Shown here: positions 5,720 to 28,695 of the stretch, piece by piece
Position numbering within the stretch: position 1 is the stretch's first letter
Layout: each line of letters starts with the position of its first letter
NCBI GenBank assembly: GCA_965113315.1
Contig: OZ220363.1
From: Podarcis vaucheri
Lineage: Eukaryota
DNA: 64,000 bases
Direction: 5' to 3' (one strand)
Translations under genes and position numbers: made by a program
The notes under the pieces: model-generated
Database searches by the model: none
Seen by the model: the letters and a program-made list of their open reading frames with translations, nothing else
What the model was told of the DNA's origin: nothing

Positions 5720-5856
5720 AGTATTGGGAAAGGGTCTTTATGGTGTATAGACCCAGAATATAGACAAAATCTTATCCAGGCTTTGAAAAAGACCCCCTAT
5801 CACCCATATTCGCATGTGTTCAGCACCCCTCCAGCGTCTCCTCAGGCATATCAAAG
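5720..5856 (+). CDS. FOXN3: FOXN3 internal coding exon (end of forkhead domain and following segment)
   Basis: Pyrimidine tract plus AG (5718-5719) and GTAAG donor (5857). The 137 nt translate in phase 0 as [45 protein letters not shown](S), matching vertebrate FOXN3/CHES1 as I recall it. Not in the ORF track. Confidence 0.96.
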
Positions 5857-7402
5857 GTAAGAAAACTTGAATATAATTTTAACATGGGCAGTTGCTTTTG
5901 TCTTGTCTCAAATACTGGATCAGGCAAAGTCTAGAAATCGGGGAGGGCTGCTAACAACATTATGTAGTCTAGCTTTTACTAGAATTCCACTGCTTGATGG
6001 GCTAGCAAAGGCGATTACTGCGCTTATCACAAATTAGTTGTACTTTAACTGTTGAAAGATCCAAAGTATGCACTCTTGGTATGTAAATTTAGCTCTAATT
6101 GTGCATATTTGGGATCTTTTAAGGCACAACTAATTGTGATAAGCGATCCCAGGTATGTAATCTCGCTTAACAGGCCAGGATGCACCTTTGCTGGTTTAAA
6201 CCAAAACCCACCTAATTCACTGTTTTTTTGCAAGAAACACAGCAACCTGTTAGCTCTCAGTGGCCCGCTGGAAACTCATTGGTGGCCCAGTGGAGAGAAA
6301 TTAGACCACAGTCTGTCTTCTGCCCACTCCCTGCCATAAAGGACTACAGCAGCTGCAGAAAGCATGGTAGTTCCCTAAACTTATTGGTACTTAAATCGTC
6401 GGTTAGAGCCGCAGTATGTCTTACCGGTTTTGGAGGAACCGACCTGTTCATTTGCAGTTTGTCATTGTAAGTTTCCAGAGCTCCTTTGGATGTTTCTGAA
6501 AAACATTCTAGCTGCTTGTGCTCAGGGCCATAGCTGGAGTTTTAAAAGGGAAAGGAAACCGTCTGGGTTTTCCTCTTTGCTTGCATGAATAAATGTGTAC
6601 CTCTTTGGAAGCAGGTCGCTGGTGCTTTTTGTCCTCCTAGCTCCCTACTTGGTAGATCGCTTTGTCAACGCAGCTATATAAACTTTTGCTTCTAGGTAAC
6701 AGGAAGCTTCCCTTGCTGTTGTGGTTACCTGTTCTGTGAGGCGAGTGTGTCTGTGCATGGTTATGCCTAGTTGCCATAGCTCACTCCTGTTCATCTTGTA
6801 AAAAAGGTGAACCCAGGACTGGTGACTTTGAAATGTCATTGGAGGGGGGAAATGGAAGCACTTGAATAGTGATTGTTTGTTTCTTGTTTGTCCTACTCAG
6901 GGGAAAGTATGAGATAATTACGGGGTATCAAACCGCCTGCTTTTCATAACAACCATTCGGGAAATGAATTATTTGTTTCTAGAAACGGAGGATCAAATCA
7001 CATCTGCACGTAGGACAACAATAGGCAAATTTATAAATAATAATAATTTAGAAACTTGTGTAACCTGTTGCACAAATTAGATCTAAGCTACACCCTACCT
7101 GGCTGCAGATATATATGTCTGTTGCCCATGTTAAAAGCCAATAAGGAATTTTAAATATGTATTTAGATGGGGATTTTGGGGGTGGTGCAATACTCTTCTG
7201 CCCCCCCCTCAAGTTATATCACTTCTTCCCTGCTTTTAAGAAGCCAGCAACATGCAAAGTAATTTCGTTCTGGTAACGTTAATGAGGTTCTCGTGCATCT
7301 GTGTTGATCCGCGCGTTCCGTCACATGACCCAGACAATCAATCTTCAGGCAGAGATTGGGAGGAACAGCTGGGCTTTTGCAGGAGACGGCTGTATGTCTG
7401 CC

Positions 7403-7573
7403 CTTGCTAGGCGATTAGCGTGATGGTAACCATAGCGACTAGAACGTCTCCATAGCAACGCATAGCTGAGACAGGTGCAGTTGCATCACGAGGCTGTTGC
7501 CTGGCAAAAGGACAGGCCATTAGTACTAAGATATACGCTGTTGCCTTGGTAACGGATAACCCTACATAGCAAC
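7403..7573. promoter_or_regulatory. cluster of RFX X-box motifs (putative intronic enhancer)
   Basis: GTAACCATAGCGAC (7426), GTCTCCATAGCAAC (7446), GTTGCCTGGCAAA (7496), GTTGCCTTGGTAAC (7540), plus weaker sites at 7403 and 7561; non-repetitive, CpG-retaining context. Confidence 0.65.
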
Positions 7574-7880
7574 TACAGTGGACTTGCAGCATTTTTACCC
7601 TCCTGATTAAAGAAAATAATAATAATAAGAGACATTCTACCAGGTTGTTGTTGTTGTTGTTGTTTTAATCTATGATCAGCAGCACCGGGAGCTCTCACTG
7701 CCAGGGTATCTGTTGCTAAAAGGTGTACTGAATGTGAGATTGAGCACTGATGACAGAAGGAGGTGAAGAGCTGCGCCTAAGGAATTGATACTAGCTGTAG
7801 CAAGTTGAATATTGGAGGTTAAGGCATGTTTGCCACCATTGAACTTAATGAGGTTTATGCCTTGGTAGACATTATTAGTT

Positions 7881-8236
7881 GGGATGTGGGTGGCGCTATG
7901 GGTTAAACCACAGAGCCTAGGACTTGCCGATCAGAAGGTCGGCGGTTCGAATCCCTGTGACGGGGTGAGCTCCCGTTGCTCGGTCCCTGCTCCTGCCAAC
8001 CTAGCAGTTCAAAAGCACGTCAAGTGCAAGTAAATAAATAGGTACCGCTCCAGCGGGAAGGTAAACGGCGTTTCCGTGCGTTGCTCTGGTTCGCCAGAAG
8101 TGGCTTAGTCATGCTGGCCACATGATCCGGAAGCTGTATGCCGGCTCCCTCGGCCAGTAAAGCGAGATGAGCGCCGCAACCGCAGAGTCGGTCACGACTG
8201 GACCTAATAATGGTCAGGAGTCCCTTTACCTTTACC
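7881..8236 (+). mobile_element. Sauria SINE, full length
   Basis: tRNA-like head (GGTGGCGC...GGTTCGAATCCC), BovB-like 3' region, (ACCTTT)n tail and 14-bp TSD TAGACATTATTAGT (7866-7879/8237-8250). Confidence 0.92.
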
Positions 8237-8445
8237 TAGACATTATTAGTAGCAGCAGCAATAGTGAGAACAAGCATTTTTGCCCTGCTCTTTAGTAAAA
8301 GGTTTCCAGAGTTCCAGAGGTCTGTGCTCAGGCTTACATTCTAAAATACATGACATACAAGGGGAAAGGGATGGAGAGGGAGAAGGAAAAAGGCAAGTTA
8401 GGGCACTAGTTCTTGACAACCACCTGGGAAGGAAACAGTTTAGGG

Positions 8446-8926
8446 CAGAGGTTTTCAACCTTTTTGAATCCATGGCTCCCTGGACCAACTACATTATTTC
8501 TGCGGCAACCCTGTGAGGCTCAGGAGCCCAGTTATATCCCCCCTTGCCCTCTTCCAAACACCTTCCCTTGTGGAGTGTTCCCTCAGCCTCCTCTCCTCTC
8601 CCCTCTCTTGGGGAGTCCTCTGGGCTGTTGGAACTGCCGCTTCTGGTCTCTGAGCTGCCCCCTCTACCCCCAAAGAGAGCTGCCTCCTTACACAGGGGCC
8701 TGGGAAGCACCCCCTGGCCAGCCCCAGAGGCACCATTCGCCTGGGGAGCTTGTAGCCAGGGCTGCTGCAACAAACAGCTGTGCAAGCCTTTGGGAGGCAG
8801 AGATGTGAGAGGGCATCAGAGGAGGGAGAGAAGGAAAGAAGGCCGGAGGCCAGTGTTGCCCATAGCACATCCTAACCATCATTCAAGGCACCCAGGGTGT
8901 CACGGCACACTGGTTGAAAACCTCTG
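8446..8926. mobile_element. hAT MITE
   Basis: TIR CAGAGGTTTTCAACC/GGTTGAAAACCTCTG; 8-bp TSD GTTTAGGG/GATTAGGG; related copy at 61781. Confidence 0.85.
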
Positions 8927-8968
8927 GATTAGGGAGCCTGAGGGTGGAATGGCTGCAGTTAGGTGATA

Positions 8969-9159
8969 CAGTGGTACCTCGGGTTAAGGACTTAATTCGT
9001 TCTGGAGGTCCGTTCTTAACCTGAAACTGTTCTTAACCTGAAGCACCACTTTAGCTAATGGGGCCTCCTGCTGTCGCCGCGCCGCCGGAGCACGATTTCT
9101 GTTCTCATCCTGAAGCAAAGTTCTGTAACCTGAAGCATATGTAGCCCGAGGTACCACTT
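8969..9159 (-). mobile_element. Tigger-like MITE, internally deleted, inverted relative to neighbour
   Basis: CAGTGGTACCTCGGGTTA TIR with TA TSD; internal sequence is the reverse complement of the 9259-9484 copy. Confidence 0.85.
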
Positions 9160-9258
9160 TAGTTGGAGGGGGGACCCAAAGGCAACTGGTGTCTGCAGAG
9201 GCAATGGAACAGTGCTGGTTCCCATCTCTACTCTGTCCTGCAGCCTGATGGAGATGTA

Positions 9259-9484
9259 CAGTGGTACCTCGGGTTACAGACGCTCCAGGTTACAGACTCC
9301 CCTAACCCAGAAATATTACCTCGGGTTAAGAACTTTGCTTCAGGATGAGAACAGAAATTGTGCTCTGGCGGCATGGTGGCAGCGGGAGGCCCCATTAGCT
9401 AAAGCGGCGCTTCAGGTTAAGAACAGTTTCAGGTTAAGAACGGACCTCCGGAACGAATTAAGTACTTAACCTGAGGTACCACTG
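9259..9484 (+). mobile_element. Tigger-like MITE
   Basis: TA|CAGTGGTACCTCGGGTTA...TAACCTGAGGTACCACTG|TA. Confidence 0.9.
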
Positions 9485-9658
9485 TATATGGGTTTGTTTA
9501 CACTGGCATATATAAAATTGTGTTGTTAATACCTGCTTTATCCTCCCAAACGTGCCCCCCTCCCCAGTAAATTCCACAATAGTCTCTTTGATGTTTGTGT
9601 TTTCCCCCTGTATCCCTCCCTGAATTAGTCACCAATCTGCTCTGGCCCAAAGTAACTA

Positions 9659-9827
9659 CCGTATTTTTCGCTCTATAACACGCACCCGACCATAACACGC
9701 ACGTAGTTTTTAGAGGAGGAAAATCCGTAGGCATGCCACCCGTAGGCATTCCCTCCATAACACGCACAGACATTTCCCCTTACTTTCTAGGAGGAAAAAA
9801 GTGAGTGTTATGGTGCAAAAAATACGG
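9659..9827 (-). mobile_element. TcMar-Tc2-like MITE (short variant)
   Basis: TA|CCGTATTTTTCG...AAAAAATACGG|TA; subterminal motifs reversed relative to the 406 and 1896 copies. Confidence 0.85.
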
Positions 9828-10102
9828 TAAATGTTTTGTAGCCTGACCTTATAGAGCCACAACAGTACAAGCCAAGACCTACGCTACAGCAGAACAACAG
9901 CAATATCTTATCTCTGCCATGCATAGCTCGACCCTAAGTGGCACTCACAGTTTGGGAGGGCAGGAGAGAACTGTCAGGGACAAAGGCATTTAAGAGGGTG
10001 CATGGATGGGTCCGAATTTTATCCACACCAACTCGGCACATGAAGCTGCTGCAGGGCTTGGCTATGGTGTCATTTACTGGCATAGTAGTTGTTTGTTTAG
10101 AA

Positions 10103-10238
10103 CAGGCATCCCCAAACTGTGTCCCTCCAGATGTTTTGGCCTACAACTCCCATGATCCCTAGTTAACAGGACCAGTGGTCAGGGATGATGGGAATTGTAG
10201 TCCAAAACATCTGGAGGGCCGAAGGTTGGGGATGCCTG
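10103..10238. mobile_element. hAT foldback MITE (~135 bp)
   Basis: CAGGCATCCCCAA...TTGGGGATGCCTG; perfect 8-bp TSD GTTTAGAA; almost fully palindromic. Confidence 0.9.
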
Positions 10239-10967
10239 GTTTAGAACTAGTTGACTGTGAGATGGGAAGATCCCAGCTCCCTTATGGGAAGGACTCCTGG
10301 TGATCCTGGTTATAACAAAATCTTGTCCCTGTGACTTTATTGATGTCCTTTTGTTATTTGTAAATCACCATGGAATTTGTAATCAATTAACATTCCCTCC
10401 ACCTCCTCAAGTTGCTGTCAAGGCTTTTTTTAAGCCAGAACTAAGTTCCGGCACCTCTCAGGTGGGTGCCATTGCCACTCTCGGAGAACATGGGAGGTGT
10501 TCATGAAGAGTTCTGGCCCCTCTTTTTCTAGAAAAATAGCATTGGTTGCCAATGTTATATAGATAACTGGACCACATGATTTCAAAGGTGCCCTTCTATG
10601 GAGGCCTTTGCAGAGCTTGTGTTAAGATCGGGGTGGGAATTTTGTTAGAATAAAGTTATAAAGTGAAACAAAAAAGTAGCCAGTCCCTGGCCCCTTACAC
10701 ACCTGCTTTCATGGATAGAAGGTGCTTTTGGAGCCCTCCATTAATGGAAGAGATGGTGGTTTTCACTTATTTCCCCCTTTTCCACCAGTGTTAGAAACTG
10801 GGATAGAAAAGCTAGGAGCCAAATGCCTCCTGGGACCTGGGTTGTGGGCGCCAAAACAGAGTGTCTAGTTGCCATTGGGGGGTGGGGTTCGGCAACACTT
10901 TCTATTTATTACTTCGATATTACACAATTCACATAAGTGACACAGTATCACAGTTTTAAGAGAAGTT

Positions 10968-11151
10968 ACAGATAGGTAGCCGTGTTGGTCTGCCATAGTC
11001 AAAATAAAAAAATTCTTTCCAGTAGCACCTTAAAGACCAACTAAGTTAGTTCTTGGTTCAGTGTATCTGAAGAAGTGTGCATGCACACGAAAGCTCATAC
11101 CAAGAACTAACTTAGTTGGTCTTTAAGGTGCTACTGGAAGGAATTTTTTTA
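10968..11151. mobile_element. Penelope-like element remnant with inverted pseudo-LTR segment
   Basis: About 54-bp inverted repeat (11003-11056 vs 11100-11153), hammerhead motif between the arms, 12-bp TSD TTAAGAGAAGTT (10956-10967/11152-11163). Confidence 0.8.
11063..11100 (+). ncRNA. minimal type I hammerhead ribozyme motif (Penelope-associated)
   Basis: GUAU-CUGAAGA-A-GUGUG(CAUG)CACAC-GAAA-GC-UC^-AUAC: conserved core boxes, stem II hairpin, stem I GUAU:AUAC, and palindromic AGCU in place of stem III. Confidence 0.75.
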
Positions 11152-11754
11152 TTAAGAGAAGTTGTTAATCCATGTTTAATTTGGAGTTTACAGTAAAAAA
11201 ATATTGGTACTGTACTTCAGTTTTCAAAACACTCTACCCTTTATTGTTAAACTCCTTAACGTATTGTCTATCCTTAACATATACTTCAAGGCTTCAAAGC
11301 ACATACATTTCAGTAATCCTTGAGTGTCAGCCAGGCACAAAAAAATTGCACCCAGACTTTTTTAGGTGCTCTCAAATGGAGAATCTTTAGGTGCAAAAAG
11401 CACCTGGCGCCCTGCTAATTTCTAACCCTGCTTTCCACACCCTTGCTGTTCTGGATTTATTTATTTTTTCATGATGGGTAGGGGAGAACGCCTTTGTAGA
11501 GGTTACCCTGAGCTCCTCGGAGGAAGGGCAGAATAAAAATGCAATAAAAGTATGTACAGCGCCCCCACGCCACCCCTGCGACCGCAATCCCTCATGCTTG
11601 GGTCGGGTCTAAAACATTTATTGCCAGGTAGAAGCTTAAAGCAGAATGTGTGCCATAAACATCAACCACTGCTAGAACCTTCTCTTCGGCTGCCAAATCC
11701 AGGCCAAAGGGAGGAAGGAGTCTGGATAATGTTTCCAAATGTGCGTCTGGCAAT

Positions 11755-12207
11755 TTGGGACCAGGTTACCTAAAGATCATCTGCCCCTGTATAGACCTGT
11801 AAGACCACTTACATTATCTGGGGGAAATTCTGTTCATGGCATTGCACCCCACTGAATGCCATACAGCAGTGACCCCCCAAACCAGGCGTTTTCTGTTATT
11901 GTCCCTGTGTTATTCTGTTATTGTCCCTTCCCTCTGCCATATGTGAAGGAACAACCATCAGTTGCATCAGACATCTTGTAAAGACTTCTTTTTTAGCCCA
12001 GACTTTCCCTCACCCGTAAGGTCAGACTCTATTTTATGTGTTTGAATCCCCTGAATGCCTATTTTATTTGTTTTTAATATGCTTTTATGCTGTTGTTTAA
12101 TTGGTCTTGGGTTGTATTTTTGTTTTAATAGTTTTGTTTTGAAATGCACACCACGTAAGAAAATTTACAAACACCAAGCGGTTTACAAATGCTTTTAACT
12201 AAACTAA
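11755..12207 (+). mobile_element. decayed L2-like LINE 3' end
   Basis: GPGYLKDHLPLYRPVRPL-like residual reading, AT-rich 3' UTR and aagcggtttacaaat...taaa tail. Confidence 0.55.
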
Positions 12208-13507
12208 GTCAGTCATTGGGAGAAGCACCTCTGGGTGCCGTTGCTGCCTGGCCCCTTAATTTTCCGCGTGAAATCAGATTGAAGAGGAGGTTTCTGAAGG
12301 ACAATTCATTTTTAGGCTTTATAGGAACTGCCGTCTGCTATACCTGTCTTGGCAACTTCTCAGCTTTTTTATTTGAATGCTGTGAACTGTCCTTGGGGTG
12401 TACTTGAAGGCTGCTCAGAAACATCACCAGGTGCCAAATTCTTCCTGCAGTGAATACACTAATTATTTATGTATGTGTTTATTTCAGGTGCTTATATTCC
12501 ACTTTTTGTCAAGCAGTGACCAAAGCAGTCTCCAATTTATTAAGCCAGAACACCGTAATTTGAAAATTTATAAAATGCCACTAAAATCACCAACAATTTA
12601 ATTTATAATAAAAATAACTATTGCAGAACAACCCCCTCCCCCTCAACTCAGAGCAATCCAAATCTTACTTCAGACTAGCACTGAAGGAATTTCAGTGGCT
12701 GATGCCCAGACACAACTTGAGGAAGTGCATTTGACCTTCCCAAAGCCCTAACAAGCTTAGATTGGGCAGATTTTTGAGCTTATCTGCTCCCATGTGAACC
12801 TCCTCGTGATCTTCTGGTGATGCTTTGTTGGTTGTTCCATGTGCCACCTCCTCCGATTGGGCCGATAGCGTCCCTGCACGAAGTTTTCAAGAAAAAAGAT
12901 GGGATATGAGTCTAAATAACTAGTCGCCGGAGAACAATAGCAGCTAGTTGCCCGTTGTGGGAAATGGAATGCCAGACTCAACAAGGCAGATGTGGGGAAC
13001 GTTTGGCCCTCCAGATGTTGCCAAACTACAATTCCCATTGGCCATGCTTGTGAAGCCGATACAGGTTGTAGTACAGCAACATCTGGAAGGCCAGAGGTTC
13101 CTCACACCCGCAGTAGGCCTCTTATCCACCAGGAATCTTAGATAATTTCAACCAACAGCTGGAGTGACCTTGAGTGGAGTTAACGGTAGAAACGAGAGCT
13201 CATGCTTTGCACATGTAAGTTTCTAGGTTCAGTCCGTGACATCCACAGTTAAAAAGGATCTTAGGAACATGAGAAGCTTGTCAGTGCCTTGTACTGAATC
13301 TGACCATTGGGCTGGCTTTCCTACCCTTACCTGGAGATGCCACAGAGTTAACCCAGGACCCTTTCTGTGCAAAACTTCTGCTCTACCATTAAGCTGTAGG
13401 TTCTGCTATAACATGGAAGAGTCTTTGCCAATCAGGCTTGCTGTTGCTAAATTGGCCAGTGGCTTGACTTTGTGTTAAGCCAGCTACTTATTTGAATCAT
13501 GCCATTC

Positions 13508-13564
<57 letters not shown>

Positions 13565-13665
13565 TTATTTATTTGTACCCCACCCATCTGGCTGGGTTTC
13601 CCCAGCCACTCTGGGCAGCCTCCAACAAAGATTAAAAATACATTAAAATGTCACACATTAAAAAA
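13508..13665 (-). mobile_element. L2-like 3' end with (AAT)19 microsatellite tail
   Basis: (AAT)n at 13508-13564 followed by cccatctggctgggtttccccagccactctggg, which recurs at about 28590-28625. Confidence 0.7.
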
Positions 13666-14442
13666 ATTCCAAGGAGTTTGAAACCGTTGGAACTGGGTTT
13701 CCTTTGGGCTTGGGTTTCATTAGTATTTCCTCCCTCCCTCCCTCCCTCTGTAACTGATCCAACCTCCTCAGAGGGGTCTGGAAGGGTCTGAGTTAGAATT
13801 GATTAACGGATCTGATACTCTCTCATCAACAAGCTATAGGAGTGGCTTTCTCAGCACTGAAAGTAACTTTCCCACTTTAGATGGTTAAATTAACAAAGCA
13901 AGGAAGATAGCGTTATACCCAGGGGCTGTGGGTATCAGCCCCGCCCCGCTCTGATTAGATCTTGTACTTTTCTTTTAGAATTGTGGGTGGTGAACCTAGA
14001 CCTATGTCTTGCTGTTTGTTTGTTTTATGGTCCCTCTGAATATTCAGTTCCTACCTCCCCCTTGTTTTCTCTCTCTGTATGTGCCAGAGGTGGGGAACCA
14101 GGTACCAAACGCTGGCCTTCAGTACTCTCCTCAGGCCACACACCCCTCCCCAACCACACCTCAAACTAACCATGCTTCACACCTTTCTTGCATGTCTTTG
14201 CCTGGCTAGAATGTGCCCTTAAACTTTGGATAATGATTTTTGCTGACCGGCTGGAGCATGGAAATGGGTGTGTGCAGAAACTTGGCTTCTGGACAAAATG
14301 TACATTCATAGCTCTGCCTGCTCTGGCCTCTGATCCCACACACCACTCACAAGTTGCTCAGAAAGGAGTGTGTCTGAAAACAGGGTCCCTGCTCCTACTG
14401 TACTCATTTAAATAGCTGCACCATGTATCCTAGAAAATAGAC

Positions 14443-14575
14443 CAGGCATAGGCAAACTTGGCCGTCCAGATGTTTTGGGACTACAATTCCCATCCCTGAC
14501 CACTGGTCCTGTTAGCTAGGGATGATGAGAGTTGTAGTCCCAAAGCATCTGGAGGGCTGAGTTTGCCTATGCCTG
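14443..14575. mobile_element. hAT foldback MITE
   Basis: CAGGCATAGGCAAACT...AGTTTGCCTATGCCTG; perfect 8-bp TSD AAATAGAC. Confidence 0.9.
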
Positions 14576-16103
14576 AAATAGACTCTAGTTCACACAAGTT
14601 TATGCCTGTGAAAATGCTTTTAAGATGCTACAGGCAGTCTTACTATAAGAAGGCACAATTCGTTTCTTTTAAACATTCCTATCCTGAATTTTCCTTAACT
14701 GGGCATAAAAAGAATAAATTACGAAAGGTGTTAAAAATAAAATTGTCATACTTTCCCTTCCCTCATTTGGAAAACTCGAGCAGTCCTTGGCATTTTAAGC
14801 AATTTCTAGTTAAGATTCTGGGATATTGGATTACCTCCTGATTGGTAAAGCACTTCATTTCTCGTTTACTGAAATTGCTAATGCTAGTGCCGTTGCACAA
14901 AGGGGCTTCTGGGAAGCTGTTAAAAGACGCAATTTGATGTTGAAATAATTTCACCAAATGCTGGCTGTCAGTTCTTCAATAATGGACGTGCTTATCTATA
15001 TAACTTTGTGTGTATATAGGAGAAACATTCAGCTTGTCCAAATTGTCTTGTGCTGGAAACTTGTATAACTAGTTTTCAGAAACAATTAGTGTCTCCAAAG
15101 GAGGAGCAGGCTCCCATTTGCCAGTCAGCGTTTTGTAAGAAGTTGCAAAGTGAAATTGTGGTTTTAGGTGTGCAGATGCTATCTTCAAAGGAAAGTTGTG
15201 TGGCAGCATTCCATCGCCTCCCCCAAAGCTCCGAAAGACCGACACCTTTGGCTCCAAAGCTCAGTGACTGAAATTAATAAACTACACGCAGAATAACTTT
15301 TAATTCCCCCAATATTAAGATGCCTCTAGGGGGCTGGATTAACGGAAGGAATTACAAGGTTTATACAGCTCTGCTGGCAGGATCCCGTGGAGGCAAATTG
15401 ACCCACTGTTTGTGTCTTTCAAACCTCGCAGAGAAACAAATATTGAAGTTTGTCGCCAACTGTTCCAGAGCTCATTCTGCTGAATACTTAGCTGCCATGC
15501 ATTGTTTTCTATTATAGTTTTCTGCGACATTTTGGAGCAGTGACAGCATCAGAACACAGGACTCTGCCACATGCTGGATGCTATTGAACACTATAGCTCT
15601 GCTCATGCGACAGACATCTCTGTATCCTCTCCCTCTTTGTCCCTTCCAGTGCCTCACATACCCTTAAAATCAGTTCCGTAGGGCTGCAGGATCCTTCAGA
15701 GCAGATTTGAGGGTGTGTGGGAAAAGAGTATATGAAAGTCCCATTGTTCATGTGGATTTTCAACCATGCAACATTGGATGCAAACCACTGAATTTTCCGA
15801 GTCTGGTGCCCTCCAGATGTTTTGGACTACACCTTCCATCAGCCCCATCCAGAACTCTGGTCGTCACTAACCTTTGGAAGGTACCAATTTGGGAAACTAT
15901 GGTCTAAACAAGAGGCATACAGCCTAAGGAGCACATTCCCTAGTGAGCAGCCTTCTGTGTGCCTGCATATGGGTGGTGGGAACAAGTGAGTCGCGAGCAA
16001 TGGGTGCAATTTTTGTACATTAAGCTATATTCCAGCCACCCAAATTCAGAGGTTTCTACACATAACAAACAGCACATCACCCAAAATTTGGAGACATGCT
16101 AAA

Positions 16104-16626
16104 GGTAGACCTCACCTGGAGTACTGTGTCCAGTTCTGGGCCACCACAATTCAAGAAGGACACTGACAAACTGGAACGTGTCCAGAGGAGGGCAACCAAA
16201 ATGGTCAAAGGCCTGGAAACGATGCCTTATGAGGAACGGCTAAGGGAGCTGGGCATGTTTAGCCTGGAGAAGAGGAGGTTAAGGGGTGATATGATAGCCA
16301 TGTTCAAATATATAAAAGGATGTCACATAGAGGAGGGAGAAAGGTTGTTTTCTGCTGCTCCAGAGAAGCGGACACGGAGCAATAGATCGAAACTACAAGA
16401 AAGAAGATTCCACCTAAACATTAGGAAGAACTTCCTGACAGTAAGAGCTGTTTGACAGTGGAATTTGCTGCCAAGGAGTGTGGTGGAGTCTCCTACTTTG
16501 GAGGTCTTTAAGCAGAGGCTTGACAACCATATGTCAGAAGTGCTCTGATGGTGTTTCCTGCTTGGCAGGGGGTTGGACTCGATGGCCCTTGTGGTCTCTT
16601 CCAACTCTATGATTCTGTGATTCTGT
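16104..16626 (+). mobile_element. 5'-truncated CR1 LINE (young subfamily)
   Basis: Encodes [25 protein letters not shown]...; nearly identical to 60410-60925; CGA>TGA stop at 16453; (TTCTRTGA)n tail. Confidence 0.95.
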
Positions 16627-18078
16627 AACCAAAGCAAAGTTACACAGCAGCAGCAGTAGCAAGGAATAGCTCTTGGAAAGAAAAAACCCAACGATAGGGG
16701 GGGAAATACATAACTGCAGATCTCTTGGGGAAAGAGAATGCCATCCATTGTGTGAGAACTGGAAGATGGGGGGTGTTTTTAAGTGTTGCTACCTCTCTTG
16801 AGGGGTCAGACATATTAGTTAGAATTTGAACCAATAGAACAAAAATCCACCCACATTGTCCTTCTGAACTTACACTGTAAATAAAGCAAAGTTATATGAT
16901 TGCATTTTCCTTAGCAGCTGATGCCATTGCTGAAGTCAACACTGTTTAAAGTTAACTTCTGGGAAATACACCTATTTGCAGTGTTTGTAATGTATCCCCA
17001 CAGAATGTATATCCTTCCTATAAAAAGTGTTTGCAGAGCTAAAGCAAAGCTATTGACTCACTGGCTGACTTCTCTTTGTAACTTTCTGATGTCCCAACGT
17101 TCATTTTCTTTCCTCAGAACAAATTCTTTCGGTTGTAAAAAAAAAAAGAAAAAGAAAAGAAAACATGCTTGCACTTAACAAGGAAATGGGAAAATCTTTC
17201 AAAGTAGCTTTCCTTTCAGAAAAAGAAACAGCATTTTGCACCATCCCACATAATTCAAAATATATGCTATCAAAGTAAGTGCCAATACATAATAGTTTGG
17301 GTGAAATGCACTGTATTCATCTTTTCTCATATCCGTATCATAGCTCTTAAATCTCAAAGGTTGGCTTGATGGAGACAGTAATAATAGTTGTAAAAGGCTT
17401 TCTGTGCTGAGTTTGGCAGTGCTTTCCTTTAGCCCCTTCCCACCCCACAAATCAACCAAAATGATCTTGGGGTTAGAGGACGTTCTCTTCAATTTGGCTG
17501 TTTTCGTGTGCATAGGCAAAAGGCAGCCAGGGTGGCAGACTTGACATAGATGCTTAGAAAATTAGGCATGTTGCAGTTATTTGTTTGTTTGTTTGATTGA
17601 TTGATTGATTTCTGGTTAGAGGAATGTTTCTCTCCCCCCCGCCCCCCCCCCCAATGTTTCAACTCTGAATCATCCATTTGAAACTGGTTGGCAATAGATT
17701 AAGGGCAGAAAATGTATAGCCAGCTTACAGAATTCCTTGCCACAAGATGTTGTGACAGCCGCTAGTCTTCGATAGGCTTAGGTGGAAATGTATGGAAGGC
17801 AGACCTACTAATGGGAATCTCCCAAGTCCTACTTTAGGAGACAGGATGCTGGACTGATCTAACTGGGCTGCTTTTCCTCTTCTTCTTTCAGCTTAGTTTG
17901 GAATAAAAAGCCTTTGTTTCATTTTGATGCTTTCCCCCACTCCAACTTCTGAATTTGGTGAATTGATCAGCCTCTAAGATAAAGTATTTTTAAAAAACTT
18001 CTGAGTTGATCCTTAAGCTGCTAGCTGCATTCTTGTGCTGAGTCTCAAAACCAGCTCACTCAAGATTATATCCTGTAT

Positions 18079-18214
18079 CAAGCATAGGCAAACTCAGCCC
18101 TCCAGATGTTTTGAGACTACAATTCCCATCATCCCTGACCACTGGTCCTCTTAGCTAGGAATGATGGGAGTTGTAGTCCCAAAACATCTGGAGGGCCAAG
18201 TTTGCCTATGCCTG
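18079..18214. mobile_element. hAT foldback MITE
   Basis: Same family as 14443 (CAxGCATAGGCAAACT TIR). Confidence 0.88.
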
Positions 18215-18630
18215 TCCTATGCGGATACAGGTTTTATGTTGAAAAGCCATGTGTGGAGACACAACGTTTAGTGCTGAAGACCACAATATATATGTGGTGT
18301 GTATACATACTAGGCTAGGAACATTTTTCAGCCTACAGGACACATTCCTTCATGCGCAATCTTCCAGGTGCCATGTGGTATAATAGCCTGCGTTTGAAGC
18401 ATGCAGAAGTCAGAGGTTTATACACCCTTACCTGTTCATCCTCAAATCAGGGCAAGTAAGAGGCAATGTCATAGCTCAAGGACGCATTTCTTCCTGGCAA
18501 AAGCATTAAAGGAGAGCATGTAGCAGAACTTCTGAGTGGCATGACCTCAGGAGACACTCAAGGACCAGGTCAGCTTCCAAGTGCCAAATTCGGGTCCTAC
18601 CTCTGAAGTTGCCTTCCTCTTTCCCATACA

Positions 18631-19785
18631 CAGGGCCGTCTTACCTATAGGTGCTAGGGGTGCCAGGCCAATAATCTGGGGCCCAAGAGTTGAGTCTGGG
18701 GAAGAGCCCACCCGTCTGTCGGAGCGCCGCGGTCAGCTCTTCTGCTGCAGGCGGCTCTCCGCCCCAACCCCCCGCCCTCCTGCCCAGCGTCTGATGGCGG
18801 TCATCGTCGTCAAAGTCTTTTTTTAAAAAAAGTAATATTTATTAAAATTTTACAAACAATAAAGAGTTTCAAAGTTTAAACATAAAAAATAAGAACAAAA
18901 AATAACCCTAATAAAAGAAAAAAGAGCTACAAGTATACAAAAACAAAACACGTGAAAAATGCAAAATAGAAAACAGTTAAAAAGAAGAAGAAAAAGAAAG
19001 AAATCAATATTTTCATATCTTATACTTCATTTACTAGTTTCCTGACCTCCTCACACCTCCCTTTTTGTATTCCAGTTCAGATATTTAGTTCAGCAAGTCC
19101 TTACCCTCTATCATTTATCCTTGCTCAACATCTTAACCTATTATAAATATATATTTTCCACCATTATCAATCCATATTTACATACTCTTGTTAATCTTTT
19201 TACCAATACCGCTTGTTTTCAATCCAACATCTCTTTAACATTCATTAATTTTACAGTATTTCTGCAAATAGTCTTTAAATTTTTTCCAATCTTCTTCCAC
19301 CACCTCTTCTCCCTGATCTCTGATTCTGCCAGTCATTTCTGCCAATTCCATGTAGTCCATCACCTTCATCTGCCATTCTTCCAGAGTGGGTAGATCTTGT
19401 GTCTTCCAATACTCATCGTCGTCAAAGTCTTAAGGTGTCACGGGACCAAAGCGAGTGGGGGCTCCGGGTCCCGGGACGTGCTTTCGTGAGCCGCCCACAG
19501 AGGCTTGCCACTTTCCTCCTTCCCTTTCTCTGCCTCCCAAATTTTAGGCGCCTTGCTGGAGACGGAGGGCAACATGGGAGCAGGGAGGGGAATGCAGGCG
19601 ACAAAGAAATAGGCTCGGCCATTTTATTTGATTTGTAAACCCCTCCCTGTCGCCAGCACCCGGCATCCGACTGAGCTCCAGCTTCAGCAGCTCCGTCCAG
19701 AAGGCGGGGGGTGGGGTGGGGTGGGGGTGGGACCTGCCAGGCGAATTTTTGCACCCCTGTGCCACATATGCTTAAGACAGCCCTG
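18631..19785. mobile_element. GC-rich hAT non-autonomous element interrupted by an L1
   Basis: TIR CAGGGCCGTCTTA/TAAGACAGCCCTG; 8-bp TSD CCCATACA/CCTATACA. Confidence 0.8.
18820..19412 (-). mobile_element. 5'-truncated L1-clade LINE (ORF2 C-terminus, 3' UTR, A-rich tail)
   Basis: Minus strand reads YWKTQDLPTLEEWQMKVMDYMELAEMTGRIRDQGEEVVEEDWKKFKDYLQKYCKINEC*; perfect 19-bp TSD TCATCGTCGTCAAAGTCTT; TT|AAGA endonuclease-type site. Confidence 0.85.
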
Positions 19786-20772
19786 CCTATACAAGAAGGA
19801 TATGCTAGTGGGGGGACGGGACCTATTTCACACAAAGCTCAACCTCTTGACTAAAGAACACGGGTCTTATTTACTTCTGTAGTTACCCTGTGCTTTTGAA
19901 TACATAAATAATATCACTTGCGCATTGGAAAGAGCAGTATTGTACTTGCTAATGCTTCCTTTTTATAGCACCAAGGAATGAAAAGCTATTTACTAGTAAG
20001 TTAATAGTTTAAGTGTCTGAAGGACCACCATCTGGAAATTCAGTTGGATCACATATATTTTGCAGCTTGTGGTTGTAATAATTTTCTATATAAGCAAAAT
20101 GCTTCAAAGCCTACAGGGCGAGGTGCTAATTTAGTCTCCACTATTGGTTATAATTTTGAAAGTGGGTGTAATTTACACCCTCTCTTTTTAGAACATTTAT
20201 CCTGCTTTTTCAGTTGAGGGCACCGGTCAAAATATGTTGTTTTTCTGGCTTCAATAAAGTTAATGGATTTTAACTGTGACATTTTCCTTGCTTGAAGTGT
20301 TGCTGTGGGACTGAAATTCTTAGAACAACCCCCAAGATCATCACTACGGTAACTGGTGTGTGTACCAAAGAAACAAACAGTTCTGTTATTTTTCCCAAAA
20401 TCCTAGTCCCATGAAGAACACAACTATGAATTATTATTTTATTTATTTTTCTTTGTATCCCTTCATACCACACAAATGGGCTTACAGAGCAGCTTTCCAC
20501 AGTTAGCTGTATGAACAAAACCCATTTAAACAAAAATATGTGTCAATTAAATATCTATATTACATAGCAATATTAAATAATATATTAAATATTTTTCAAA
20601 TGCCAAAGGTACACAGAAGTTGAGATTAAGGGACTTTCTGCATTTATAGTGGAACCGTTGCTGTTTTTTCCAAGTTTTTTGGGCATGTTGCCAGACAAGT
20701 CCAGTATCGTTCAGCTAGTATTCGGGAATAATGTATTCAAAAATGTTTTGGGAGCTTGTAATCAAATGGGCA

Positions 20773-21128
20773 GGGACGCGGGTGGCGCTGTGGGCAAAAC
20801 CTCAGCGCCTAGGACTTGCCGATCGTCAGGTCGGCAGTTTGAATCCCCGCGGCGGGGTGCGCTCCGGTTGCTCAGTCCCAGCGCCTGCCAACCTAGCAGT
20901 TTGAAAGCACCCCCGGGTGCAAGTAGATAAATAGGGACCGCTTACTAGCGGGAAGGTAAATGGCGTTTCTGTGTGCTGCGCTGGCTCGCCAGATGCAGCT
21001 TGTCATGCTGGCCATGTGACCCGGAAGTGTCTGCGGACAGCGCTGGCCCCCGGCCTCTGAAGTGAGATGGGCGCACAACCCTAGAGTCGGACACGACTGG
21101 CCCGTACGGGCAGGGGTACCTTTACCTT
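20773..21128 (+). mobile_element. Sauria SINE (different subfamily, CpG-rich)
   Basis: GGGACGCGGGTGGCGCTG head, AGAGTCGGACACGACT shared with the BovB 3' end, (ACCTTT)n tail, 14-bp TSD TAATCAAATGGGCA. Confidence 0.92.
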
Positions 21129-21588
21129 TAATCAAATGGGCAGCCCGTTTTTGCACTAATGAAGTTATTGAGCAGCCTTCAGCATGAAAGAAAACCATTT
21201 ACAACAGTGATCAATAATGAAATACTTAACAACATGTGGGTTTGTGTTTCAAACTGCAAAAGTACAGAGCGAATTACTGACGTCCAGCCTGGAGGTTACC
21301 AAACCCCTTTTGTGTCAGGGGACCAGGCTGTCATCACCTTGGAGTGGCCAGAGCTGGTACTAAATGTTAGTGGCTGCTCCTTGAGACTCCTGGAGTAATG
21401 CTGAGTTGAGCAGTTGCCTCAGGTTTAGGCACCACCCAGAACCAGGGGAGCAGACCAAGCACACACACATGCACCTCTGCTTCTTGTCTGAATTGAACTT
21501 GACCGTTATTAATTCAGTCTAATCCAATTCACCACTGTCCCTCAGGCACTTCTTGAGAGTTTCCATTGTTTCGTTGGATCGTGTAGAA

Positions 21589-21904
21589 CAGGGGACGGCA
21601 AAGTTTTCGTGGCTTGGGCTGGTTCACGGTCCCGCAGACGCTGCGGTGGGCCGGAGTGTGCGCACACATGCACAAACGCTATTTCTGGCGTGAAGGAGGC
21701 GTGCGCAGCTTCCCATTGGCTACAGGAGCTTCCTGCAGCCAAGGGGAAGCCGGCCAGTGTCGCGGAAGGCGGTCCCCACTCTGCTACGAGCCGGTTTAGC
21801 GCAGCACATGGGAGCCGACTGAGCAGGCGGCGAGGGTCCACGGGTCGGTTAAATAACCCCCATGGGCTGCTTGTGGCCCATGGGCCTTAGGTTGCCGACC
21901 CCTG
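21589..21904. mobile_element. hAT MITE
   Basis: CAGGGGACGGCAA...TTGCCGACCCCTG; TSD GTGTAGAA/GGGTAGAA. Confidence 0.85.
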
Positions 21905-22253
21905 GGGTAGAAACTTAAAATACTACAAGCGTGGTGTTGGCTCCTCACCTCAGATTTGGCTCTCCCTGGTTTTAGTCAGAAGCTCCAACCCAGGCAGTTG
22001 AAACCTTTGGTCCACAGTTTAACGTGGCCTCTCAATCCAGCTCCCGGCCCTCTCCCTAGATCCCTCCATTCTGAAGTAAGCTGGCCATGTAGGAAGATTG
22101 AATCTTCCTTCTTTTCCTGTCTGGCCAGATCATTGCGTTCCCTGTCTGTGCTCACTTGAGAGAGTGGTGCCCAGAAGGGGGGGAAGGGGGGGCGGGTTGT
22201 AGTCTCGGAGGGGGCCTTGCCCTCTTTGGGCTCACCTGCTGCTATTATGTAGT

Positions 22254-22630
22254 GCGGGTGGTGCTGTGGTCTAAACCACTGAGCCTCTTAGGCTTGCCAA
22301 TCAAAAAGTCGGTGGTTCAAATCTCTACGACAGGGTGAGCTCCCGTTACACTGTCCCAGGTCCTGCCAACCTAGCAGTTGAAAGCACACCAGTCCAAGTA
22401 GATAAATAGGTAACTCTGCAGCGGGAAGGTAAACAACGTTTCTGTGCGCTCTGGTTTCCATCACAGTATTCTATTGCGCCAGAAGCGGTTTAGTCATGCT
22501 GGCCACATGACCTGGAAAGCTGCCTCTGGAAAAACGCCGGCTCCCTTGGCCTGAAGCAAGATGAGCCCCACATCCCATAGGTGCCTTTGACTGAACTTAA
22601 CCGTCCAGGGGTCCTTTAGCTTTACTTTTT
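22254..22630 (+). mobile_element. Sauria SINE (older copy)
   Basis: Homologous to 7881 with CpG decay; 11-bp TSD TATTATGTAGT. Confidence 0.88.
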
Positions 22631-22835
22631 TATTATGTAGTAACTTGAGCCATTTTCTCCTGAAAGAATTTGACACTTGGGGCGGGGTTTCCCACCCCTG
22701 TTCTAACCACTGCACAGAGATGTTTTCACAGCGGGTAGGATATACCCTTCTCTGAAGGGAGAGACTTTGATCATCCCTTTGCCAATACTGGCTGTCCATT
22801 TTGGGTTTCCCTTTGAGCACTAGTAGCTAGTGCCA

Positions 22836-23145
22836 GTCTGGGACTGGAGAGGTCCAAGTTGAAATTCCCCACTCAGCCATGAAGCCGTAGAACCCTAGAA
22901 CTGTAGAATTGGAAGGGACCCCAAGGGCCATCTAGTCCAACCACCTGCAGTGCAGAAATATTCTTGCCCAACGTCGGAATCAAACCCGCAGCCCTCAGAT
23001 TAAGAGCCTCATGTTCCATCCCAGCACCAGTCACTGTTGTCTTCAATCTAGCCTACCTCTTAGGGTTGTTATAAGTGGGGAGAAATGTGAACACGGCTTG
23101 CTGTTTTTGGAGGAAAGGCAGGATATTAAATGTAATGAATAAATA
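22836..23145 (+). mobile_element. old MIR/SINE2-like element split by a younger SINE
   Basis: B-box-like gttgaaattcccc...gccatgaagc (22836-22886) resumes at about 23025 with gcctacctc..agggttgtt and ends in an aataaata tail; similar split element at 30050-30495. Confidence 0.5.
22888..23020 (-). mobile_element. tRNA-Lys-derived SINE with CR1 3' tail
   Basis: Minus strand: gctcttaatctgagggctgcgggtttgattccgacgttgggc (tRNA-Lys-CTT-like) followed by ttggactagatggcccttggggtcccttccaa (CR1 tail). Confidence 0.75.
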
Positions 23146-23198
23146 GCTGAAAGAAGGATATGCTATGAGTTCTTTAAAAAATGAGTTCTTTAAAAAAT

Positions 23199-23236
23199 GT
23201 ATCTGAAGAAGTGTGCATGCACACGAAAGCTTATAC
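23199..23236 (+). ncRNA. minimal type I hammerhead ribozyme motif, second copy
   Basis: GUAU-CUGAAGA-A-GUGUGCAUGCACAC-GAAA-GCUU-AUAC; one substitution (C>U at the cleavage position) versus the 11063 copy. Confidence 0.72.
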
Positions 23237-23288
23237 CAAGAACTAACTTAGTTGGTCTTTAAGGTGCTACAGGAAGGAATTTTTTTAT
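23199..23288 (+). mobile_element. short Penelope-like remnant
   Basis: Near-identical to 11063-11153; flanked by TTTAAAAAATG direct repeats (23189-23199/23289-23299). Confidence 0.8.
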
Positions 23289-24746
23289 TTTAAAAAATGA
23301 ACACCATAAAACCCCAAATAGATTAACTTATTTGTAACGTCTCCTTTCTCCATTTCCTTAAAAATGTTCCCATTTTTCCTCCCTCAACTTGTTGCATTGA
23401 GATCTTAAAGGTTTGCTGGATTCAGCTGCTGTTTTTATCTCTTGAGAAGCAAAAGAAGTGGAAAAGCAAACTTTAAAATGCCTGCCTCTGTTAATAAAAC
23501 TAAACTGCCTTAACATCCTGTGCAGGCAAATAGCTGAAATCTCCTCTTTGCTCCCAACCCCACACCCTTAATTGACAGTGAAGCCTGCCTCTGTAAAATC
23601 TTGGTGCTCAAACTGTGAGACTTAATAATTGGCGAAAAGAGTTCTGGTGGGGTTCTTTTTTTTAAAAAAATTACACCCCCAGGGCAGAGGACCCCCCTGC
23701 TTTGGCACCCTGATCTTCTGAGCACCTAAATAATATTAGAAAAGGAGGAAGGGAAGGAGGGTGGAAATGGCAAGAGGCTGGAATTCTGGCACCAATTAGT
23801 CTTGAGATTACTTAAAGAGGATTGCAATTTCAAGGCAAAAAAGAGTAGGGAGTGGGGTAAAGGGATTTGAAATGAGATTATGGGACCTAAAAGTGCCTTT
23901 CTTTTGTTAAGGAAATAATTCAACAGTTTTGTTCAAGCTGCTGCTGCGACAATCCAGTTTAGAAAACTTGTAAGTGTGAGATCAGCATCCTGTGGCTTTG
24001 GAGATGCAGCTGATCCCATTTTTCGTTTCTTTGAAAAAAAACAAAACCCCAACAGTTCTCCCACCTCCTCCAGCAGCTAAGCAAGCTATCCTAAAAGACT
24101 AGTGCCTTAATTAAAGGCTTTGTTCTTTTTCATTTAAGGAAAGGGGTTTTTTTTATCTGAAGTGGGAAGATGGGAAACGATATCTGGACCTCGCCTGCCC
24201 TGTTGCTTCATTTTCTTGCAGGTGTCCGGTTTGGGTCTCACCCTTCCCCCACCAACCAAACGTTTTAAAAACATGTCCTTGAGTCCTTAAAACTGTGTTT
24301 GGTGTAAATATTTTGTCCCACCCGAAGATCCACGATGGACAGCTTTCAGCTTCTAGTTCAGCAGTAGTGTTTGTAATCCTTATCTCAGCACCGAGGGCTA
24401 AGCTTGAGTCTTAAAAAAAAACAAAACCTAAAGCCAGACAAAAATACAGGATCAGCAGATGAGAAATCAAAAGTGTTTATCTGGATAATCTGCGTCTGAA
24501 CCTCTCTACTTGTTTTAAGGTCACACGAGGACTCTTCAAGACTTCTTTTTTAAAAAAAAAAGAAAGAAAAGAAAACTTTTAATTACTATAACGTGTTTCT
24601 CAACCCAAGATGAGTTACGATTAAAATGCACAAAAAGGTACCATATAATTAATTAGGGATATGTTGCAGGTGTGTGCATGATTGTGTATGTGAGTGATTT
24701 CTTGAGACTTACAGTCCAGGCCAGGAGTTTGTGTGAGTGTCTTAAG

Positions 24747-24915
24747 CAGGGGTCAGCAAACTTTTTCAGCAGGGGGCCAGTCCACTGTCCCTCAGACCTT
24801 GTGGAGGGCTGGACTATACTTTGAAAAGAAAAAAATGAATGAATTCCTATTCCCCACAAATAACCCAGAGATGCATTTTAAATAAAAGCACACATTCAAG
24901 TCATGTAAAAACACC
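24747..24915 (+). mobile_element. hAT MITE, 3'-truncated
   Basis: CAGGGGTCAGCAAAC start; homologous to 51412-51668 and (inverted) 30124-30376. Confidence 0.8.
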
Positions 24916-26508
24916 CTTCGAGAAGATGATTGGGGAATCCCTTTTCACAAGGTTAGCTGTTACCTTATGATGCTTGCAAGTAGGTGCTGGAAGGTATTTT
25001 CAAGGCCACTGCACGCATGTGGCACATCTTTTGGGAGAGAGAGAGGAAGAGAGAGATGTGGATTGGATGAGGTGTTTGCGTGCTGTGCAGCGTGATCCCC
25101 TTTTTCCCTTTTGGTAATTTGCTAATCAGTCATCTGAAGAATTTTGGGCAACTGAGAGGAAGTTGACCCCTTCTGCATAAATTGTGGAAAGGTCACCGCT
25201 GTTTAATGAATGGCGGCCTTACCTGCGTGATTAGTGTCATTTGTCTTGGGGAAAGTATTAAAGTGTTATGAAGTTAGTAGCGAAATAGACTTTTAGCATT
25301 CTCAGCCGGCTGACGGCAGGTTTGAGAACTGCGGTGAATACGAATGAAACCTGCACACTAAAGAGGGGGTGGCCTTAGTTTTAAAAGTGAGACAAGTCCT
25401 GCCATTAGTCTAGCAAACCCAAAAGATAAGACACAGAAGAGGGAAAGGGGGAGAGGAGGGTTAAGGTGGAAACAAGCTTTTAAAGTCCAGAAGAAAGTGT
25501 TGAGCTGCACGCATATTCTATCTAGTTCAGGCCAGGCTGATCTTCCCAGACTGATTGTTCTCCTTTGAAGAGCAGTTGGTGGGTGGGAGTTCTCCCTTTG
25601 GCCTTTCCCCTTGCCTTCTGCACTCCCAAGGGCAACTGGCAGTTAGAGACTTCCAGGCAGAGAGGAGGAAAGGACGGAGCTGTAGCTCTTTTGGCTGATG
25701 GATGGGGCCACAACGATCTTCCTGTTTTTGTCAGGCTCCTGGTGGTCCTTCATTCCCTGATAGATGTCAGAGGCCAGACAGTGCTTGCCCTTCAGCTCTG
25801 AAGTCCCAAGGCTGCAGTCATGTAAATTTACTGCATTCATTTCAAATTGCCAGGTGCAGGTGATGGTCGCTTGTGAGTAACCAGGCAGGACTCTGACTTC
25901 TCTTTTACAGGTTTTATTGTGCAAACTATTTACAGTGCAGAACCACAAAGTACATGTCCGTCTTAGTCACCTGCAGAATCTGGGAGTGTCCCCTTTCGGC
26001 TTCTCCCCCAGCATAAGAACTTCGGTACCCCAAGTCTCCACCTCCCCTCTTTTCGTTTCACCCCTCTGCGCAAGCTGGGCGACAGAAGTGGCCTGCGTCC
26101 CTCCTGCCCAGCCTGGCTAAGTGAGGCGCTGGGGCTCTCAGCCCTTTCCTCGCTTGGCTGGCCCCTTCCCTTTCTTCTCCACTGGAGGTGTGTTTTTTTC
26201 CACTGCTGGAGGAGGAACTGCTCCTCAGGAATTTTGGAGGCTCCCTGTATCCCTGCGGGCCCCCTGCCTCCCTCCCCTGTTCCGATGGCAGTCCCCTGAC
26301 ACAAATATTATAGGGGTGGAAATCCAGCCTGGTCATTTGTGTTACTTACGAATGCAGCGATCAGATCTAAATGAAATTCTCTTCAAAAAAAACAGCCAAA
26401 CCCAGCTTAAAATAGTTCACAAGAAACTTCAGCCCATTAACATCTGCTTTTATGCACTTGCTTCTTGAAATGAACAAACGGAGGCCACTGTCTGAGCTAC
26501 CTAATAAT

Positions 26509-27001
26509 GTTGTTGTCGTTTAGTCGTTACCGACTCTTCGTGACCCCATGGACCAGAGCACACCAGGCACTCTTGTCTTCCACTGCCTCCCGCAGTTTGG
26601 TCAAACTCATGTTGGTAGCTTCCATAACACTATCCAACAATCTCGTCCTCTGTCGTCCCGTTCTCCTTGTGCCCTCCATCTTTCCCAGCATCAGGGTCTT
26701 TTCCAGTGAGTCTTCTCTTCTCATGAGGTGGCCAAAGTATTGGAGCCTCAGCTTCACGATCTGTCCTTCCAGTGAGCACTCAGGGCTGATTTCCTTCAGA
26801 ATGGAGAGCTTTGATCTTCTTGCAGTCCATGGGACTCTCAAGAGTCTCCTCCAGCACCATAATTCAAAAGCATCAATTCTTCGGCGATCAGCCTTCTTAA
26901 TGGTCCAGCTCTCACTTCCATACATCACTACTGGGAAAACCATGGCTTTAACTATACATACCTTTGTTGGCAAGGTGATGTCTCTGCTTTTTAAGATGCT
27001 G
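26509..27001 (-). mobile_element. BovB (RTE clade) LINE 3' fragment
   Basis: ORF 26527-26973 (-): VKAMVFPVVMYGSESWTIKKADRRRIDAFELWCWRRLLRVPWTARRS..., typical of BovB; (CAA)n tail; 11-bp TSD TACCTAATAAT. Confidence 0.95.
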
Positions 27002-27014
27002 TACCTAATAATAG

Positions 27015-27898: not shown

Positions 27899-28552
27899 CA
27901 AGAGCATCTTCCCTCACCCCTGGAATGCTTTGGATTTGAGCCATTGGCCTTCAGATGACTCTTCCCTGCCAGGCTTACGAACTCCTGTGTTCTCTTTAAA
28001 ATAGGATAAACTTTTCTGGCTGTCCTTAAAAAAAAAATAAACACAGCAGATTTTTTTTATTAGTTATTATTTAATGGGTAATGTCTACGCTTTATTGCTA
28101 AACATGGCCTTCTGATAGTTTTTGTAGATTGCAGGGCAGAGGCTGGTACTTTGCCCCCTGCCACCTCAGGGCCTCCTGGAATAGGGAAAAAAATGGATTG
28201 GTAGCACTTATCATAAGTAGCTGTCACCATGGTTATGCATACCATCACTGTAACATGATACAAAGCATGTGTCTGTGAAATATAAACAGAACACAAGCTG
28301 CTCCGCTAGTAAGCTCTGTGGAAGTTTGGAGGACCTGAGCAATGCAGTAGCAGAAGAGAAGAGAAACCACTTCTTAGCTCTGCACGACAAAAAGTTTCTC
28401 GCTTTGCAGCAGCTACCTTCTTTCTTGAATATGCATGGTTTGATAGTGTAGTGGTTGCTTAGGTCATGATTAAAGAAAACTCTGTGCACTTAACATACAT
28501 CCAGATTTCCAAGATTAACTGTAAATATATAGGGGCTGTGGCTAGGTCTAGA

Positions 28553-28695
28553 TTATTATTATTATTGCGCACGCACACACACAAACACACTGCCCATTTG
28601 GCTGGGTTTCCCCAGCCACTCTGGGTGGTTTACAGCATGTCTAAAAACATAATAAAAACATCAAGCATTAAAAACCTGCCTTCAGATGTCTTCTA
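28553..28695 (-). mobile_element. L2-like 3' end
   Basis: (ATT)n followed by the same conserved segment as 13580-13665 and ctgccttcagatgtcttcta. Confidence 0.65.

Follow-up and report, generated by a model that had tools for sequence, protein, structure and literature searches.

A minimal hammerhead motif in a FOXN3 intron of Podarcis vaucheri lies in a short, high-copy insertion that is most likely the end of a Penelope-like element

The DNA analysed here, called the window, is the whole stretch of 64,000 nucleotides from Podarcis vaucheri, and it contains part of FOXN3 (Table 1). The exon encoding the end of the forkhead domain was named by PDB, whereas Pfam and Atlas gave no clear name for it. 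The exon downstream of it was located by way of a FOXN3 peptide motif, and we take it to be the next FOXN3 exon. Further FOXN3 exons were looked for by short motifs only. The two exons join in frame, and thus both copies of the motif described below lie within the 31.1-kb intron between them. An earlier note, made from the letters of this DNA alone, had placed the motif within a FOXN3 intron, in sense orientation. The identity of the first exon and the in-frame join support this placement.

Table 1. Features of the FOXN3 locus, the insert and the hammerhead motif
Feature	Position	Strand	Remark
FOXN3 coding exon, forkhead domain end	5720..5856	+	29/29 identical to human FOXN3 (PDB 6NCE, E 1.8e-15); AG/GT ends
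Host intron, 31.1 kb	5857..36995	+	GT...AG ends, in-frame exon join; both hammerhead copies inside
Putative next FOXN3 exon, 65 nt	36996..37060	+	Phase fits upstream exon
Left target-site duplication, 12 bp	10956..10967	+	Exact repeat at 11152-11163
PLE-type optional tail, 35 bp (39 with 10964-10967)	10968..11002	-	Inverted arm only
Inverted, 5'-truncated copy of element end	11003..11057	-	Stops at base matching 11099
Sense, 5'-truncated, tail-less copy of element end	11057..11153	+	97.8% to copy 2
Minimal type I hammerhead	11063-11100	+	Predicted cut after C11096
Stem I, 5' strand GUAU	11063-11066	+	Sequence
C3-A9 core box	11067-11073	+	Sequence
Extra A after core box	11074	+	Sequence
Stem II	11075-11088	+	5 bp and CAUG loop; 14-mer is a perfect palindrome
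GAAA box	11089-11092	+	Sequence
G-C	11093-11094	+	Sequence
U16.1	11095	+	
C17	11096	+	
Stem I, 3' strand AUAC	11097-11100	+	
Older repeat hosting copy 1	11149..11431	+	87% identical paralogue 28971-29251 without insert (alignment)
Right target-site duplication	11152..11163	+	Exact repeat of 10956-10967
Copy 2 of element end, 92 bp	23198..23289	+	blastn 97.8%; hammerhead 23199-23236

The motif was found with exactly the letters and coordinates given in the earlier note, and hammerhead numbering assigns C17 to position 11096, in agreement with the scissile bond predicted there. The two core boxes alone occur in the window at chance level (4 matches against 4.18 expected). A full descriptor consisting of the boxes, a stem II of at least 4 bp, a palindromic helix III, UH and a stem I of at least 4 bp found two sites in the window (11067 and 23203, both on the plus strand), while every one of 300 dinucleotide shuffles came out empty, which rules out a chance motif. 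A check by covariance models or a descriptor had been proposed; the descriptor gave the two sites, whereas no hammerhead match was obtained from Rfam, either at the gathering score over the whole window or, for 10900-11250, with the E limit relaxed to 10. The motif has the features of the minimal hammerhead (min-HHR) consensus: the CUGANGA and GAAA boxes, an extra nucleotide that separates position 9 from 10.1, G10.1-C11.1, a helix II of 5 bp (4-8 required), a short helix I of 4 bp, a palindromic 15.2-16.2 G-C without a loop, and U-C at U16.1-H17 (U-U in copy 2). An ATG at 11081 in loop II opens a frame that closes after 9 codons.

The min-HHRs of Penelope-like elements (PLEs), including that of Chrysemys picta bellii, share with our motif the core boxes, the extra nucleotide after A9, G10.1-C11.1, a palindromic G-C replacing helix III and a 4-bp helix I (Cervera and De la Pena 2014, PMC4209133). 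The turtle row in Fig. S3 of that paper reads GCAU/AUGC and GUGGG/CCCAC against GUAU/AUAC and GUGUG/CACAC here, and these are compensatory pair changes in stems I and II; the row itself carries no mark of PLE or ORF association. The fit to the consensus and to the turtle row supports the earlier claim of a minimal, Penelope-type hammerhead of type I. Our motif differs from the min-HHRs of that paper in its 4-nt palindromic loop II, in C17 of copy 1 and in being enclosed by its own inverted arm, and the lizard family is not among the supplement entries compared.

The motif lies in an insert of 184 bp (10968-11151), whose two arms meet head to head and share 1 nt, at 11057. The motif is part of this repeat insert and not a feature of FOXN3. 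The last 3-4 nt of the left target-site duplication match the family's own end, so that 8-12 bp are truly duplicated. The inverted arm stops 2 nt 3' of the predicted cut and carries a tail that neither the sense arm nor copy 2 has, and the sense arm begins with an initiator-like TTCAGT (11057-11062). An inverted repeat of ~54 bp with the motif as its loop had been described before. The repeat is real (55 bp, 98% complementary, 11003-11057/11099-11153), but it pairs 11099-11100 with 11057-11056 and thereby occupies half of the four nucleotides of stem I. Copy 2, to which the earlier note makes no reference, lies about 12.1 kb from copy 1, in the same intron and in the same sense orientation. 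It has U at position 17, lacks both the inverted arm and the tail, is flanked by an 11-bp duplication (23189-23199/23289-23299), and ends at the tail-less position of copy 1. Both window copies are solitary and neither belongs to a tandem array; no other piece of the tail or of the sequence that the family has upstream was found in the 64 kb. Immediately before copy 2, a 16-bp unit occurs twice in tandem (23165-23196).

The family was surveyed by comparing 10500-11800 with genomic contigs of three related genomes and with an RNA run. Between 8,942 and 12,896 contigs matched per genomic set (3/3 runs). The summed contig depth over the motif was ~1.4-1.8 x 10^5 times that of the single-copy flank in 3/3 runs, a ratio that is not a copy number; dividing it by up to 31 overlapping contigs would still leave several thousand copies. 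The presence of two copies within 64 kb points the same way. We infer that the family numbers thousands of copies or more, and as one of them the insert is of little importance as a FOXN3 feature. No paper linking FOXN3 to a hammerhead was found in the literature searched, which reflects one insertion among very many, and a literature search with the motif sequence string gave unrelated papers only.

Two related species (organisms B and E) have flanks ~97% identical to the window. In both, contigs of single-copy depth follow the left flank as far as 10955 and then continue for 92 and 88 letters, respectively, that do not enter the insert, and in organism B the contig depth of 9.94 reappears at 11195. 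From these contig ends and depths, the site is apparently empty in 2/2 related species; the joint itself is not among the 15 of 191 joints listed. The run most like the window (X1) has no contig across the 10955 breakpoint. Thus conservation at the orthologous site, which is expected of a domesticated hammerhead, was not seen in these two species. The second copy in the window, the very high copy number of the family and the apparently empty site together speak against the idea that the motif is special to FOXN3.

Among the 24 of 1,091 rows listed, the loose ends of family members pile at 10964-10965, 11150-11153 and 11057, and for organism B also at 11063. None of the ends listed is at 11096/11097. 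The RNA run (X23) showed no pile of ends, with 12% of it read, from a species that seems to be without the insert and from a library that shows such ends poorly. The family continues upstream of 11057 in 4/4 runs (44-47 contigs; 284 RNA reads), and therefore longer copies exist. Other family copies form near-spacerless palindromes with joints mapping to 11041-11051/11107-11124, both arms of which terminate at a distance of 8-27 nt on the 3' side of the predicted cut; these could have come from templates that had been cut, from deletions in a hairpin or from local switching of the template. Scans of viral, metagenome and prokaryote collections revealed no RT or GIY-YIG ORF linked to the family. 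There were 0 matches in viral contigs, 0 in prokaryote genomes and 1 among metagenome contigs (L001), in vertebrate-like DNA with no PLE ORF evident. Its degenerate hammerhead-like motif of the same pattern (3995-4035) is possibly an old relic or due to chance.

Taken together, it is very probable that the locus holds a minimal hammerhead within a short, recent, high-copy insertion, most likely the end of a Penelope pseudo-LTR (pLTR), and that the motif is carried in the FOXN3 intron as a passenger likely to misfold. The insertions have the layout of EN+ PLEs: short duplications of an AT-rich target site (12 bp and 11 bp), a head-to-head, inverted, 5'-truncated copy at the 5' end, and an optional tail at one end (35-39 bp, inverted arm only). 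Published EN+ PLE insertions likewise show 5' truncation, begin with a truncated copy in inverted orientation, carry a tail of 30-40 bp on one side and duplicate 8-10 bp of the target site, whereas the insert here is only ~190 bp and has no ORF remnant (Arkhipova 2013, PMC3846280; Craig 2021, PMC8557442). Among the closest known systems is Poseidon PAc of Anolis carolinensis, a lizard PLE with a min-HHR and with two alternative ends that lie 30-40 bp from each other (Frangieh et al. 2024, PMC11167929). The tail of PAc corresponds to the sequence between two internal sites at which RT starts, nicking and extension take place on both DNA strands, the targets are AT-rich, and the RNA template is uncut, as we propose here (PMC11167929). 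The two groups of family ends in our survey (10964-10965 and 11150-11153) are the ends predicted from two RT start sites. PAc differs in its hammerhead sequence and in that its ORF starts in stem II, as opposed to the 9-codon ATG frame here (PMC11167929). The FOXN3 insert is a lizard addition to the known minimal PLE hammerheads, and similar motifs have been published from turtles, snakes and Anolis.

The insertion may have arisen as follows. The GIY-YIG nuclease of the element would have nicked both strands of the AT-rich site, 8-12 nt apart, and RT would have primed one cDNA at each nick, using two internal start sites, one at the tail end and the other at the tail-less end. Both arms copy the same 55 nt, which argues that probably two RNA templates were used. 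As the scissile bond lies within the sense arm, the template of this arm would have been uncut. The two cDNAs would finally have been joined at the 1-nt overlap.

It had been suggested that the inverted repeat would extend or clamp stem I. Folding prediction gave the opposite picture. In two-dimensional prediction, which takes no account of Mg2+, of tertiary contacts in the core, of proteins or of the order of folding during transcription, the pair probability of stem I was at most 0.001, the core nucleotides C3-A6 were paired to 11058-11061, and the active-like fold of copy 1 was +6.85 kcal/mol uphill. The clamp reading was rejected, since the predicted fold has the repeat blocking stem I. 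By the same kind of prediction, the element's own 3' sequence would still capture the core by 3.6-8.1 kcal/mol without the repeat, and the core of copy 2 would be captured by 3.3-4.5 kcal/mol. In the pre-mRNA, the 55-bp repeat would thus take two stem I bases while the core would pair with 11058-11061, and a ribozyme without its own helix III would need a partner or the element's protein. The motif is therefore predicted to misfold and would likely cut rarely if ever, and cutting of the FOXN3 intron by it is unlikely. The hammerhead 5' strand and core in the element's RNA can pair ~50-75 nt downstream (11057-11140; z ~0.6, not significant). It is possible that pairing of the core with downstream sequence would serve as a built-in off state.

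Published assays are consistent with rare cutting. Cleavage of single min-HHRs was not detectable and that of multimers (dimers, trimers) was low (PMC4209133). The PAc hammerhead cuts only with protein, RNA-seq ends at its site are reported as absent, and it is dispensable for insertion in vitro (PMC11167929). Dimers of Xenopus retrozymes gave no product in 8/9 cases (bioRxiv 10.64898/2026.07.22.740005). Two observations speak against a misfolding passenger. The core is fully intact in both copies, both of which are in sense orientation (chance probability 0.25). Furthermore, only 2 nt separate the end of the inverted arm from the predicted cut, which is what copying of a cleaved template would produce and is an estimated ~1-in-20 coincidence; the other inverted arms listed end elsewhere. 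Introns that are cut co-transcriptionally are often still spliced, so some cutting might matter little.

Upstream of 11057, the family has in 4/4 runs a TATA-like box ~28-31 nt before the initiator-like TTCAGT, and this upstream sequence is represented by 284 RNA reads with an agreement of 0.93. TATA and initiator-like motifs in pLTRs have already been described for EN+ PLEs (PMC3846280, PMC8557442), as has a promoter within the pLTR (PMC2377424). Position 11063, the first base of stem I, is a top start point in organism B (46 contigs), copy 2 starts within 1 nt of its equivalent, and in run X1 a G directly precedes 11063 in 4/5 joints listed. We tentatively propose, at slightly less than even confidence, that the many short copies in which an extra G precedes a start at 11063 represent 'strong-stop'-like cDNAs made off the capped 5' end of uncut RNA. 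RT would then prime inside the 5' pLTR and run off the capped uncut RNA. The extra G may instead be a sequence variant at 11062. Alternatively, the AG at 11060-11061 could act as a splice acceptor, in line with the D. virilis Penelope intron that ends at helix I (PMC4209133). No paper on a cap-derived extra G in PLE copies was found among the papers listed or in a term search of PMC11167929. If the proposal is true, starts at 11063 would map the start site of the element and show from genome data alone that the hammerhead is uncut during transposition.

The family might be a non-autonomous SINE- or retrozyme-like derivative of ~90-130 nt that is amplified in trans, and not a truncated autonomous PLE. 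This would fit the starts of both window copies within 11057-11064, the frequent start at 11063 in organism B (46 contigs), the head-to-tail joints from 11143 and from 11152 to 11063 that exist in the family, and the average of 176 bp for reptile retrozyme consensus sequences (bioRxiv 10.64898/2026.07.22.740005). Animal non-LTR retrozymes are likewise short, PLE-related repeats bearing type I hammerheads, and their monomers are common in introns (42-44% of Xenopus copies), but here there is no tandem array, the ribozyme is minimal and not canonical, and an inverted arm and tail are present (bioRxiv 10.64898/2026.07.22.740005). We consider such a derivative rather unlikely, as the family extends beyond 11057 in all four runs, neither window copy stands in a tandem array, and the inverted arm and optional tail are marks of PLEs. 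It is also unlikely that any effect of the insert on FOXN3 is due to its near-perfect 55-bp RNA hairpin, through ADAR editing or small-RNA processing, and not to the ribozyme. The hairpin is indeed predicted to be very stable (-105.8 kcal/mol, z -16.6), and the sub-threshold Rfam matches are all to generic long-hairpin models; a microRNA identity from Rfam was rejected, being below the gathering score and reflecting the long hairpin. In X23, there were 19 T>C and 19 A>G places, against 10 and 15 in a DNA run with the same species label, but this uncontrolled comparison mixes thousands of paralogues and different individuals. Moreover, 97% of the matching RNA reads continue into dissimilar sequence, while the depth over the unique flank 11468-11800 is zero, so nothing is shown by them for the FOXN3 locus. 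The T>C/A>G excess in X23 is in itself a possible sign of editing of family hairpins.

A direct effect of the ribozyme would require that the copies at 11063 and 23199 form a double hammerhead via their AGCU palindromes, or are activated by protein, and cut the FOXN3 pre-mRNA often enough to change its splicing or the output of the gene. Both copies have an intact core and lie in sense orientation, the U17 of copy 2 fits NUH, dimers and trimers of min-HHRs cleave at a low level in vitro (PMC4209133), and the PAc hammerhead cuts with protein (PMC11167929). However, the intermolecular helix III contributes only -2.5 kcal/mol at an ideal-coil effective concentration of 0.2-0.5 uM, the active-like folds of the two copies are +6.85 and +3.3 kcal/mol, and the insert is apparently absent from two related species. 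The cofold of minimum free energy, in which stems II and III are shared between the copies, looks geometrically implausible. We therefore regard this as very unlikely. A still bolder version, in which the two young sense copies cut the pre-mRNA as a double or protein-switched hammerhead and form a species-specific, transposon-dependent brake on FOXN3, possibly with a 12-kb intronic circle, is highly improbable. The chance that the motif is a domesticated, conserved intronic hammerhead is close to nil. It shares with those of RECK, CTCL and DTNB its intronic sense position, its type I architecture and its amniote host, but those are orthologous and canonical, whereas the FOXN3 copy is young, repeated and minimal (PMC6155905). 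Its target-site duplication is intact, it has a 97.8% identical paralogue and no helix III, and it is apparently absent from close relatives with ~97% identical flanks.

As the end of a young and abundant PLE family, the insert makes the question of the in vivo role of PLE hammerheads addressable by counting. Comparison of sense with antisense intron copies would tell whether PLE hammerheads cut host pre-mRNAs. A histogram of 5' ends would distinguish two kinds of template: a peak at 11063 would indicate capped uncut templates, and a peak at 11097 ribozyme-cut ones.

The window also contains other repeats. Three LINE 3' fragments with open frames (16107-16624, 41365-41719 and 60415-60925), which we take to be CR1-like, are 98-99% identical and are young copies. 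Two further LINE fragments with open frames (26508-26973 and 57238-57705) are 92.5% identical and presumably RTE/BovB-like. MITE-like inverted-repeat elements were found at 9000-9453, 10098-10243, 12986-13111, 14438-14593, 18078-18220 and 47221-47371, with further copies across the window.
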